From the NCBI GenBank assembly GCA_035389185.1, contig DAOORK010000001.1:759419-823418 (forward strand): a DNA stretch of 64,000 nucleotides. The letters run 5' to 3'. The DNA is from Candidatus Woesebacteria bacterium (GTDB lineage: Bacteria > Patescibacteriota > Microgenomatia > UBA1400 > MFAQ01). Numbering within the stretch: the first letter of the stretch is position 1; every line of letters starts with the position of its first letter. This document shows, piece after piece, positions 27,597 through 30,500 of this stretch. The notes under the pieces were generated by a model. The model was not told the origin of the DNA and searched no databases. It saw only the letters and a program-made list of their open reading frames with translations. A program made the position numbers and the translations under genes.

Positions 27597-30500
27597 TTGA
27601 TTTATTCTACTCAAGCAATCAGTGGATGCCTTGGCAGTAAAAGCCGAAGAAGGACGTTTCAAGCCTGCGAAAGTTACCGGGGAGGTGGCAAGAACTTATG
27701 ATCCGGTAGTGTCCGAATGGGGAAACCTAACCAGATTTATCTGGTTGTTACACTTTGATTTATCAAAGTGTTTCGGGTACCTCCTGAACTGAAATATCTA
27801 AGTAAGGAGAGGAAAAGAAATCGAATGAGAACCCCTTAGTAAGCGACGAGCGAACAGGGGCGAGTCTAAACCACAATTTATTGTGGGGTTGCAGGGCCAG
27901 ACATAACGTAGTTTTTCCGATAGAAGAACAATTTGGAATAGTTGACCATAGGGGGTGAGAGTCCCGTATTCGAAATTGGAAAGACTACAGTTTGGTACCT
28001 AAGTAAATCTAGAGACGGCAAACTCTAGGTCGAATCTGGGCTGACCACAGTCCAAGACTAAATACTTTTACTGACCGATAGTGAACTAGTACCGCGAGGG
28101 AAAGGTGAAAAGAAGGGCGAGTAACCCTATTAAAAGATCCTGAAACTGATTGCTAACAAACAGACGGAGGTCGCCTTTGGCGACTGACGTCGTGCCTATT
28201 GAAGAATGAGCCGGCGAGTTACTCAACACAGCAAGGTTAACCGATAAGTTTCGGGAAGCCGAAGGGAAACCAAGTCTTAACAGGGCGTGTAGTTGTGTTG
28301 TGTAGACCCGAAACCGAGTGAGCTAACCATGAGCAGGTTGAAGCCTTGAGAAATCGAGGTGGAGGACCGAATGGGTTGATGTCGCAAAATCATCCAATGA
28401 CTTGTGGTTAGAGGTAATATGCCTAACGAACTCGGAGATAGCTGGTTCTCCTCGAAACATGTTTTGGCATGGCCTCGTATTTACGGTATGGGGGGTAGAG
28501 TGCTGAATGGATTTTACGAGTAAAATCGTGACTTCCAACCAAACTCCGAATACCCATATCAATTGTACGGGAGTCAGTGGCTGGGGGCTAAGCTCCAGTC
28601 GCAAAAGGGAAACATCCCAGACCCACAAATAAGGTCTCTAAATATACATTAAGTGGTAAAAGACGTGTCATTTCTCAGACACCTAGGAGGTCGGCTCAGA
28701 AGCAGCCATCCTTGAAAGAAAGCGTAACAGCTCACTAGCCGAGAGATACACGACTGAAGACGTAACGAGGCTAAATGTATTACCGAATTTTGGGAACACG
28801 ACCGCAAGGTCGGGTTGGTAGAGGAGCGTTCTTGTGGCTTTGAAGGCGAACCGTAAGGTTTTCTGGAGCAGCAAGAAGTGAGAATGCCGGCATGAGTAGC
28901 GTAATAAAGTGAGAATCTTTATATCCGAATGAGCAAGGTTTCCTACGCAACGTTCGTCGACGTAGGGTAAGGCGACCCTTAGGCGAGGCCATAATGGCGT
29001 AGCTGATGGATTACTGGTTGATATTCCAGTCCTTGTTTGCAATCGTTATTAACTGGGGCGGGACGAAGTTGGATAGTCTGGGCGGTGTGTTGAAGATACA
29101 CACGTTTAAGCAGTTAGTCAGTCACTATTGGCAAATCCGTAGTGGCGTTTACACGAGCTGTGAACACGAGTCTGCCGTAAGGTGGACAAGTCAGATGACT
29201 TCAGTTTCCGAGAAAAGCGTCGCAGTGAGAGTGCAAATAATCCGTACCACAAACCGACACAGGTGCTCTGGTCGAGTAGACCAAGGATAGCGAGAGAACT
29301 CTTCTTAAGGAACTCGGCAAATTAGCTAGGCGTAAGTTCTACGAGATGCCTTGCCCTGAGCAATATCAGGGCTACAACAAAAGAATACAAAGCGGCTGTT
29401 TAACAAAAACACAGGTCTGTGCAAAAGAGAAATCTTAAGTATACAGGCTGAAACCTGCCCAGTGCCGGAAGGTTAAATGCGTGGCTGATGTCTCCGTAAG
29501 GCGACCTAGGCTGCAATTGAAGCCCCGGTGAACGGCAGCAGTAACTATAACTGTTCTATGGTAGCGAAATTCCTTGTCGGGTAAGTTCCGACCTGCACGA
29601 AAGGTGAAACGACTTTGTAACTGTCTTGAGAAGAGACTCGGCGAATTTGAATTGGCTGTGAAGATGCGGCCTACTGGCAGCAGGACAAAAAGACCCCGTG
29701 GAGCTTTACTACAACTTGGCACTGAAATGTGTAAAGTAACTGTTTAGCATAGGAGGGAGTATCAGTATTTATATTGGTACATCAATGAAATACCTCTCTT
29801 TGCTATATACGTTTCTAACCTAATCCAAATGCAAACTTTGGAAGGAACACTGTCTGGTGGGTAGTTTAACTGGGGAGGTTGCTTGCTAAAGAGTAACGCA
29901 AGCGCACAAAGGTACCCTTTCTCCGGATGGAAATCGGAGTGTAAGCGCATAGGTATATGGGTGCTTAACTGTGAGACATACAAGTCGATCAGATACGAAA
30001 GTAGGTCTAAGTGATCCTCGTGTACTTCGTGGGAGGTACCGGGCTTAACGGATAAAAGCTACCCCGGGGATAACAGAGTAGTCGCACCTGAGCGTCCACA
30101 GCGACGGTGCGGTTCGCTACCTCGATAGACAATGACCCAAACATGTCGAGAATAAATTTGGCTTATAACGAAGAATGCCTAAGATTGAACACTTTAGGTT
30201 AACATCGTGGGAAGGTCGCCTAAGGCGACCCCCGTAGAGACTGATTCAAAAAACCGTTTAGGTTTTAGATGAGATAGACAACTTTTTGAAGTTGCTTATC
30301 AAACGCCAATAAGTAAAAAGAGCAAGTGAAATAATAAAGCTCATTTTACGAAAGATATAGTCCAAACCACTAGTAATAGTTGGAGAGCACAAATACACAT
30401 AATTTTATGTATATTTTTGGTCGGCTCAGCGCATCCTGGGGCTGAAGAAGGTCCCAAGGGTTGGTCTGTTCGCCCATTAAAGCGCTACGTGAGCTGGGTT

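Follow-up and report, generated by a model that had tools for sequence, protein, structure and literature searches.

Is the 293-nucleotide (nt) segment that interrupts a 23S rRNA gene in this 64,000-nt stretch of contig DAOORK010000001.1 (the window, as we call the whole stretch analysed) an intron, and if so of what kind? Very likely, positions 30127..30419 constitute a true group I intron that lacks an endonuclease and is built like those of subgroup IA, with P7.1 and P7.2 and without P2; it is inserted after U2504 (Escherichia coli numbering) in the 23S rRNA of a bacterium of the candidate phyla radiation (CPR). The 23S gene lies at 27599..30820 and matches the Rfam model LSU_rRNA_bacteria (RF02541, model 1-2925, 2313 bits) over its full length. 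It measures 3222 nt; without the insert, 2929 nt remain compared with 2904 nt in E. coli, which makes the insert the sole large insertion, and these 2929 nt align end to end with the E. coli 23S. The insert is flanked by ...GGTTCGCTACCTCGAT and GTCGGCTCAGCGCATCC (over a longer span, ...ACCUCGAU and GUCGGCUCAGCGCAUCCUGGGG), and the spliced junction would read ...ACCUCGAU-GUCGGCUCAG. In E. coli K-12 rrlH (2904 nt), CCTCGATGTCGGCTC begins at 2498, placing the insert between U2504 and G2505. Because the insert begins with A and ends with G, and only 30127..30419 restores CGAU-GUCGG, its boundaries are fixed. The initial annotation of this DNA had described a 23S gene collinear with bacterial 23S except for 293 nt near position ~2504, a 5' exon ending in U and an intron ending in G. 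All of this holds (U30126, G30419), with the site now exactly U2504/G2505.

Homologues at the same site were drawn from two scans. The first covered one genome per GTDB species with a pattern consisting of an S element, a 30-60 nt gap and the 3' exon, and yielded at least 120 loci. Most were introns at U2500/C2501, and the window junction was common to eight among the loci listed. The second covered JGI metagenomes with a family pattern (ACGCCAAYA, 33-48 nt, AAAGATATAGTCCA) and added 48 further loci. Pooled, the scans gave an L2504 family of 53 complete introns at CCUYGAU / intron / GUCGGCUC, 38 of them distinct. The distinct homologues range in length from 250 to 379 nt and have about 50-98% identity with the window intron, the identity varying with the alignment method. 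The flanking exons of their hosts are 83-100% identical, yet no variation occurs in the R and S elements, P3 or P6. Exon identity was taken from local high-scoring segment pairs, global comparison of the +/-250-nt flanks being confounded by extra L2593/L2604 introns in relatives. The terminal G and the U.G wobble at the 5' splice site occur in 38 of 38 distinct introns. The window comes from a probably metagenomic assembly, where an assembly or chimera artefact might be suspected, or a merely chance resemblance to a group I intron. We regard both as practically negligible: 38 distinct variants occupy this junction in assemblies independent of one another, among them contigs of 0.84-1.09 Mb, the size of CPR genomes, and the single-sequence minimum free energy (MFE) fold of the intron has a z-score of -4.1.

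The 38 distinct sequences, with 10 nt of exon per side, were aligned with MAFFT (alignment A1, 439 columns), intron nt n corresponding to window coordinate 30126 + n. Unguided RNAalifold on the plain alignment recovered P1, P3, P4, P6, P6a, P8 and P9, with 14 compensatory pairs. When the full model with its P3/P7 pseudoknot was imposed on the alignment, 91.1% of 2103 cells were standard pairs, compared with 34.8-42.9% in controls whose 3' partners were slid by 1-3 columns. Compensatory change on both sides affected 25 of the 59 pairs, and the covariation score (0.216) was reached by 0 of 500 shuffles (0.086 +/- 0.006). Covariation was found in P4, P5, P6a, P8, P9 and P9.1; two of the four P4 pairs are exchanged on both sides, in 7 and 16 sequences (ACGA/UCGU, ACGG/CCGU, UCGG/CCGA). 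The stretch between P7 and the P3 3' strand is out of register in MAFFT and was folded sequence by sequence against composition-matched shuffles. It formed exactly two hairpins in 38 of 38 sequences (34 distinct segments) compared with 31% of shuffles, with a mean energy z-score of -3.8 and a value below -2 in 36 of 38.

The catalytic core is conserved as well. The R-like element AGAGACUGA lies at 30236..30244 (intron nt 110-118) and the S element AAGAUAUAGUCC at 30352..30363 (intron nt 226-237); R (GUAGAGACU) and S (AAAGAUAUAGUCCA) show no variation across the 38 sequences. P7 is invariant and pseudoknotted with P3, and its pairs run in the order G30237-C30363, bulged A30238 (A112), G30239-C30362, then A-U, a layout that we take to be the same as in the Tetrahymena guanosine site (C262/A263/G264; G264-C311). 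The pair G30239-C30362 is the putative guanosine-binding G-C pair. The guide GUCGAG occupies 30145..30150, intron nt 19-24. P5 has a conserved loop, UGAACA, and near-invariant CC:GG pairs; together with the GUAA loop of P9, the CC:GG step would be compatible with the classical L9-P5 tetraloop-receptor contact described by Costa and Michel. The strand J4/5 (AGAAU) is A-rich and would presumably be the one that touches the P1 wobble pair. P1 and P3 are just 7-10 nt apart, which leaves no P2.

Most of what the initial annotation had read from the letters survives this comparison. The group I assignment is borne out by the P1 wobble, the P3/P7 pseudoknot, P4-P6, P8, P9 and the omega-G; the R-like and S elements that it had named are both present; and the full P1-P9 fold that it had suggested as a check, P3-P7 core included, forms with covariation in the homologues. 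The pairing of CUCGAU with GUCGAG through a U.G wobble at the splice site also stands, but the guide is not 17 nt into the intron: it starts at intron nt 19, preceded by 18 nt. The description "minimal" had to be given up, since P7.1, P7.2, P6a and P9.1 are carried even though P2 is absent.

Two other arrangements were discarded. The first manual fold (P4 = CGUGGG/CCCCG, no P6, P3 = 51-57/131-137) was ruled out by a nine-sequence alignment, because the 51-73 hairpin (P5) and ACGA/UCGU (P4) covary, and an alternative P3 register, CUUAU/AUAAG, is broken in L069-type sequences. As a separate observation, the invariant A-rich linker AAUAAA that joins P1 to P3 (30151..30156, intron nt 25-30) can pair with the near-invariant U-rich tail UAUUUUU directly ahead of the omega-G (30412..30418, intron nt 286-292) in 93-97% of cells where both are present. 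Neither side varies, so there is no covariation, and the pairing could be an aid to positioning the 3' splice site or an effect of composition.

The single-sequence MFE fold also pairs both ends of the insert, as might befit an RNase III-type intervening sequence (IVS), which is cut out without rejoining of the ends, so that the 23S rRNA stays in pieces. Bacterial 23S genes often contain IVSs, and their presence in CPR is suspected (PMC11270868). However, the terminal and long-range MFE stems (22-28/286-292 and 30-38/259-268) show zero compensatory change, the observed value equalling the shuffled one, and one of them, only 77% paired, competes with the invariant P3. Known IVS sites are moreover helices 25 and 45, not the peptidyl-transferase centre (PTC) loop, and the insert contains a complete group I core. 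An IVS is therefore a most improbable explanation.

Several results weigh against a group I intron, among them the behaviour of the generic Rfam model Intron_gpI (RF00028). A scan of the whole window at gathering score returned no RF00028 match at the intron. A 391-nt search gave 24.2 bits (E=3.3e-4), below the gathering score of 50, and aligned only 30272..30383, the 3' third, skipping 116 core model positions. P1, P3, P6 and P7, without variation and 97-100% paired in the 38 sequences, are supported by pairing and conservation and not by covariation. The window copy lacks a seventh P1 pair, which in most relatives is made by an extra G (GUCGAGG) with C2498; its P6a loop is UAA where most relatives have GAAA; and the candidate P10 is 3 bp only. 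As to the model, the posterior probability was high on J8/7-P7-P9, and the gathering score (50 bits) is a curation threshold and not a biological criterion. At that score RF00028 missed the L2504 intron in 10 of 10 relatives while detecting other introns in the same loci. In one of these (L136), introns upstream in the 23S at 1630..1914 and 3010..3219 (minus strand) pass Intron_gpI with 64 and 60 bits, so the sensitivity of the generic model differs sharply between intron families within one gene. The covariance-model check proposed by the initial annotation thus gave a match, but a weak one below threshold, which leaves the comparative structure as the real evidence. Because the family is missed by Rfam at threshold, Rfam-based surveys of rRNA insertions would undercount group I introns.

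Given such a fold, the intron is probably self-splicing. It would be transcribed within the pre-23S rRNA, where P1 would arise from pairing of the guide (30144..30150) with CUCGAU of the exon, and its U2504.G wobble would define the 5' splice site. Two domains, P4-P6 and P3-P7-P8-P9, would fold around P1, with P7.1 and P7.2 buttressing the guanosine pocket as in Twort. Free guanosine at the P7 G-C pair (30239/30362, beside bulged A30238) would attack the 5' splice site; G30419 would then take the pocket and the 3'-OH of U2504 attack the 3' splice site, so that U2504-G2505 would be rejoined and the universal peptidyl-transferase-loop sequence restored. The sequences show the insertion, its site, the covarying fold and the conserved core nucleotides; this chemistry, its occurrence in vivo and its independence from protein helpers are inferred.

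Alternatively, the insert may have the ancestry of a group I intron but have lost the ability to splice itself, depending on a host or trans-acting protein (a maturase or chaperone) or persisting in the rRNA as a decaying relic. The missing P1 pair (G25) and P6a GAAA tetraloop of most relatives, the weak P10 and the lack of P2 would suit such a history. There are also precedents: in Thermotoga, a 23S intron requires a maturase (PMC3984707), and an unspliced 23S group I intron is reported for Simkania, going by a title among the references of PMC11270868. Against this, the G-binding pair, the bulged A, J8/7, the U.G wobble and the omega-G are all invariant, and compensatory change keeps the helices in 38 sequences, which implies that selection still acts on the ribozyme fold. 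If retained at U2504/G2505, the insert would break up the peptidyl-transferase loop, and CPR genomes usually have a single 23S gene (PMC11270868). We consider loss of self-splicing improbable.

The intron has no gene of its own. The longest open reading frame (ORF) wholly inside the insert encodes 46 aa, and a 74-aa minus-strand ORF overlaps the 3' end of the insert and continues into exon 2. None of the ORFs inside or overlapping the insert had a Pfam match even at E<=1, and neither the ORF list nor that Pfam search revealed a LAGLIDADG, GIY-YIG, HNH or His-Cys homing endonuclease ORF in the intron. At 250-379 nt, none of the 53 family members has room for an endonuclease gene. The initial annotation was thus right to call the intron ORF-less and without an endonuclease, and without an ORF it cannot home by itself.

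The spliced window 23S is 92.9% identical over 2942 nt to a Ca. Collierbacteria metagenome-assembled genome (MAG; L021), 96-100% identical to several metagenome contigs and 68.7% identical to E. coli; judged by these identities, the host is a Patescibacteria (CPR) bacterium related to Ca. Collierbacteria. Intron identity broadly tracks exon identity, which indicates vertical descent. In three loci (L148, L158, L123), however, exons 97-99% identical to the window flank an intron from a divergent, short subfamily (61-70% identity), with or without P9.1, a hairpin missing from short relatives. In L166, exons identical over 600 nt flank an intron with a GAAA instead of a UAA loop in P6a and with the extra G that makes the seventh P1 pair. 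This suggests occasional replacement of the intron allele, or fast intron evolution, despite the lack of its own endonuclease. In our reading, transmission within a single CPR clade is mainly vertical, and a divergent allele now and then takes the place of the resident one.

Two further observations concern the hosts. Five GTDB-representative MAGs (L070, L078, L090, L105, L115) whose 23S is 88-98% identical to that of the window are titled "uncultured Pseudomonadales bacterium"; since the window 23S is 69% identical to E. coli and 93% to Ca. Collierbacteria, these labels, or the binning of the contigs, look wrong. Close relatives carry further insertions at E. coli 2593/2594 (L125, L152, L158, L136, L137, L170), and others at 2604/2605 (L140, L145, L008) and at 2450 (L016, a Roizmanbacteria MAG). 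The window 23S has the L2504 intron alone, unlike relatives also interrupted at L2593/L2604.

The helix order P7 - P7.1 - P7.2 - P3' - P8 is the arrangement of subgroup IA, as in T4 td, and the two extra hairpins between the P7 5' and P3 3' strands occur in 38 of 38 introns. The phage IA2 ribozymes (T4 td, Twort orf142-I2) share this order and the R/S consensus; they differ in residing in protein-coding host genes and in their P2 and P9.x elaborations. BLAST of the intron gave a 29-nt chance match only in a phage collection and no match in a plasmid collection. A closer relationship emerged within the 23S itself, where a profile hidden Markov model (HMM) of the family matched other introns of the fetched loci (HMM positions ~30-260, nhmmer E down to 2.7e-26), located at L2500 (e.g. 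L065, L037, L013) and L2593 (e.g. L108). Introns at both sites, which occur in bacterial, archaeal and organellar large-subunit rRNA, share with the L2504 family the core homology (AAAUUUGGCU.AUAACG, CGUGGGAAG, CCCCGUAGAGACU, ACGCCAA, AAGAUAUAGUCC and the CUAGUAAUAG P9 loop), P7.1 and P7.2 between P7 and P3', and a place in the PTC region. They lie 4 nt (L2500) and 89 nt (L2593) away, use the guide GGGGUGC instead of GUCGAG(G), and in many cases carry LAGLIDADG ORFs, unlike the window intron; the L2500 introns examined also have a P2 hairpin between the guide and the shared AAAUAAAUUUGGCU, whereas the L2504 family has none. Archaeal LSU/2500 and LSU/2593 introns have been typed IA3 (Nawrocki et al. 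2018, PMC6125680), and P7.1/P7.2 are present in cyanobacterial L2593 rRNA introns and, in the Twort ribozyme, around the guanosine pocket (PMC1995217); absence of P2 is said in the same source to be typical of IA1, IB4 and IC2. By homology we would classify the intron as IA-type and IA3-like, with IA1 as the alternative.

In 2015 Brown et al. reportedly found ORF-less group I introns in CPR/Patescibacteria 23S rRNA genes. A later survey (Tsurumaki et al. 2024, PMC11270868) gives 82% of CPR 23S genes with insertions and 222 ORF-less group I introns concentrated towards the 3' end, several at sites new for bacteria, bearing out the statement of the initial annotation that intron-interrupted rRNA genes are known in candidate-phyla bacteria. 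Host group, gene and element type are all as for the window intron. That survey typed introns with the Rfam model, which misses the L2504 family at gathering score, and L2504 members may have been counted there among the "uncharacterized" insertions. The comparison with catalogued sites that the initial annotation had recommended shows E. coli 2504 to be a group I site, but not a new one: Cryptococcus mitochondrial large-subunit (LSU) rRNA contains Cne.mL2504 and Cga.mL2504 (CRW catalogue; PMC5808193). These too are group I introns at the same position with ORF-less forms (344-417 nt); they differ in being fungal and mitochondrial, with some LAGLIDADG_2 alleles, and the likeness is one of position and class. 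The window intron is a further example of the ORF-less group I introns already common in CPR bacteria.

Features of the interrupted 23S rRNA gene and of the predicted intron fold, in window coordinates and intron numbering
Feature	Window position	Intron nt	Strand	Pairing and support
23S rRNA exon 1 (E. coli 1-2504)	27599..30126		+	RF02541 match; junction mapped on rrlH
P1 5' strand, exon CUCGAU + intron A1	30121..30127		+	pairs with 30144..30150; helix 98.7% paired
5' splice site	after U at 30126		+	U-1.G19 wobble in 38/38
Group I intron (predicted), 293 nt, subgroup IA-like, ORF-less	30127..30419		+	
Internal guide sequence UGUCGAG (P1 3' strand)	30144..30150	18-24	+	
P3 5' strand UUGGC	30158..30162	32-36	+	pairs with 30305..30309; invariant, 100% paired in 38 sequences
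J3/4		37-41	+	
P4 5' strand ACGA	30168..30171	42-45	+	pairs with 30205..30208
J4/5 AGAAU	30172..30176	46-50	+	by position in the fold
P5 hairpin	30177..30199	51-57/67-73	+	4/7 pairs compensatory
P4 3' strand UCGU	30205..30208	79-82	+	covariation
P6 GGG/CCC, enclosing P6a	30209..30233	83-85/105-107	+	P6 invariant, 100% paired
P6a hairpin GGUCGCC-UAA-GGCGACC		88-94/98-104	+	covaries
P7 5' strand GAGACUG (R element)	30237..30243	111 + 113-117	+	pairs with 30358..30363; 96.9% paired
P7.1 hairpin	30246..30269	120-143	+	
P7.2 hairpin	30273..30300	147-174	+	
P3 3' strand GCCAA	30305..30309	179-183	+	
P8 hairpin, conserved loop (G/A)AGUGAAAUAAUAAA	30314..30348	188-222	+	8/8 pairs of main stem change on both sides
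J8/7 and P7 3' strand, ...AAGAUAUAGUCC	30349..30363	223-231 and 232-237	+	invariant in 38
P9 hairpin, invariant GUAA tetraloop	30367..30383	241-257	+	4/6 pairs compensatory
P9.1-type 3' hairpin	30391..30416	265-290	+	5/5 pairs of inner stem change on both sides
Terminal guanosine (omega-G), 3' splice site	30419	293	+	G in 38/38
23S rRNA exon 2 (E. coli 2505-end)	30420..30820		+	Rfam match, model position 2531 onward

The rRNA locus (27352..31152) consists only of tRNA-Ala(UGC) (27352..27424) upstream, the 23S gene and 5S rRNA (31036..31152) downstream. No 16S rRNA gene lies within the window; the 16S is thus not linked to this locus over at least 27 kb upstream and 33 kb downstream, and the tRNA-Ala(UGC) looks like a remnant of the usual rRNA spacer. 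Nearby are a staphylococcal-nuclease-domain ORF (31946..32440, + strand), about 800 nt 3' of the 5S, an S1-domain protein with four repeats (34180..35385, + strand) and a RadA/Sms-like ATPase (37081..38397, - strand). Ten larger ORFs around the locus were scanned, and three of them (626, 512 and 1225 aa) had no Pfam match.

The L2500 introns deserve a description of their own. Group I introns at U2500/C2501 have a very wide distribution among uncultured bacteria from many phyla (L003-L122; e.g. L011, L012, L025, L059), with hosts among Patescibacteria, Actinomycetota, Omnitrophota, Planctomycetota, Coxiella-like endosymbionts and a few archaeal MAGs. About 104 were examined, and 47 end in A, not G (...AUGUA/CGAU, ...AAUAUA/CGAU), at boundaries that cannot be shifted; examples compared were L011, L012, L025 and L059 against L015, L017 and L106. 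The A-ending introns retain the C of the P7 G-binding pair. A 2007 report on Coxiella by Raghavan et al., whose title refers to a non-canonical omega-G, is said to be a precedent for a non-G intron end. Five L2500 introns (L013, L025, L074, L080, L119) have a P2 hairpin, CUCGAG-YAA-UCGAG, followed by UGAAUAAAUUUGGCUUAUAACG. The 5' strand of this hairpin equals the exon sequence CUCGA, and its 3' strand with the sequence downstream resembles the guide context of the L2504 family, GUCGAG(G)AAAUAAAUUUGGCUUAUAACG (window 30144..30170). This resemblance may be a trace of the origin of the L2504 family, or a coincidence within one lineage. It is conceivable, if rather unlikely, that the L2504 family is a clade-restricted offshoot of the L2500 introns, shifted 4 nt downstream, which lost the 5' region of P1 and P2 and reused the old P2 3' strand (UCGAG + AAAUAAAUUUGGCUUAUAACG) as its guide. 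Were that true, it would be natural guide-sequence switching, a ribozyme retargeted to a neighbouring site in the peptidyl-transferase loop, and part of the "uncharacterized" CPR rRNA insertions would be ordinary group I introns from a family invisible to Rfam.

The intron interrupts the peptidyl-transferase centre at A2503/U2504/G2505, also a region of antibiotic contact, and its precise removal is therefore needed for a working ribosome. It leaves the existing picture of group I intron function and distribution unchanged, and its practical value is modest; it does provide a natural system in which the splicing of rRNA introns in CPR could be tested cleanly. The main use of the 38-sequence L2504 family is as the seed of a family model beyond generic Rfam coverage, and such a family-specific model would reclassify some "unknown" rRNA insertions.

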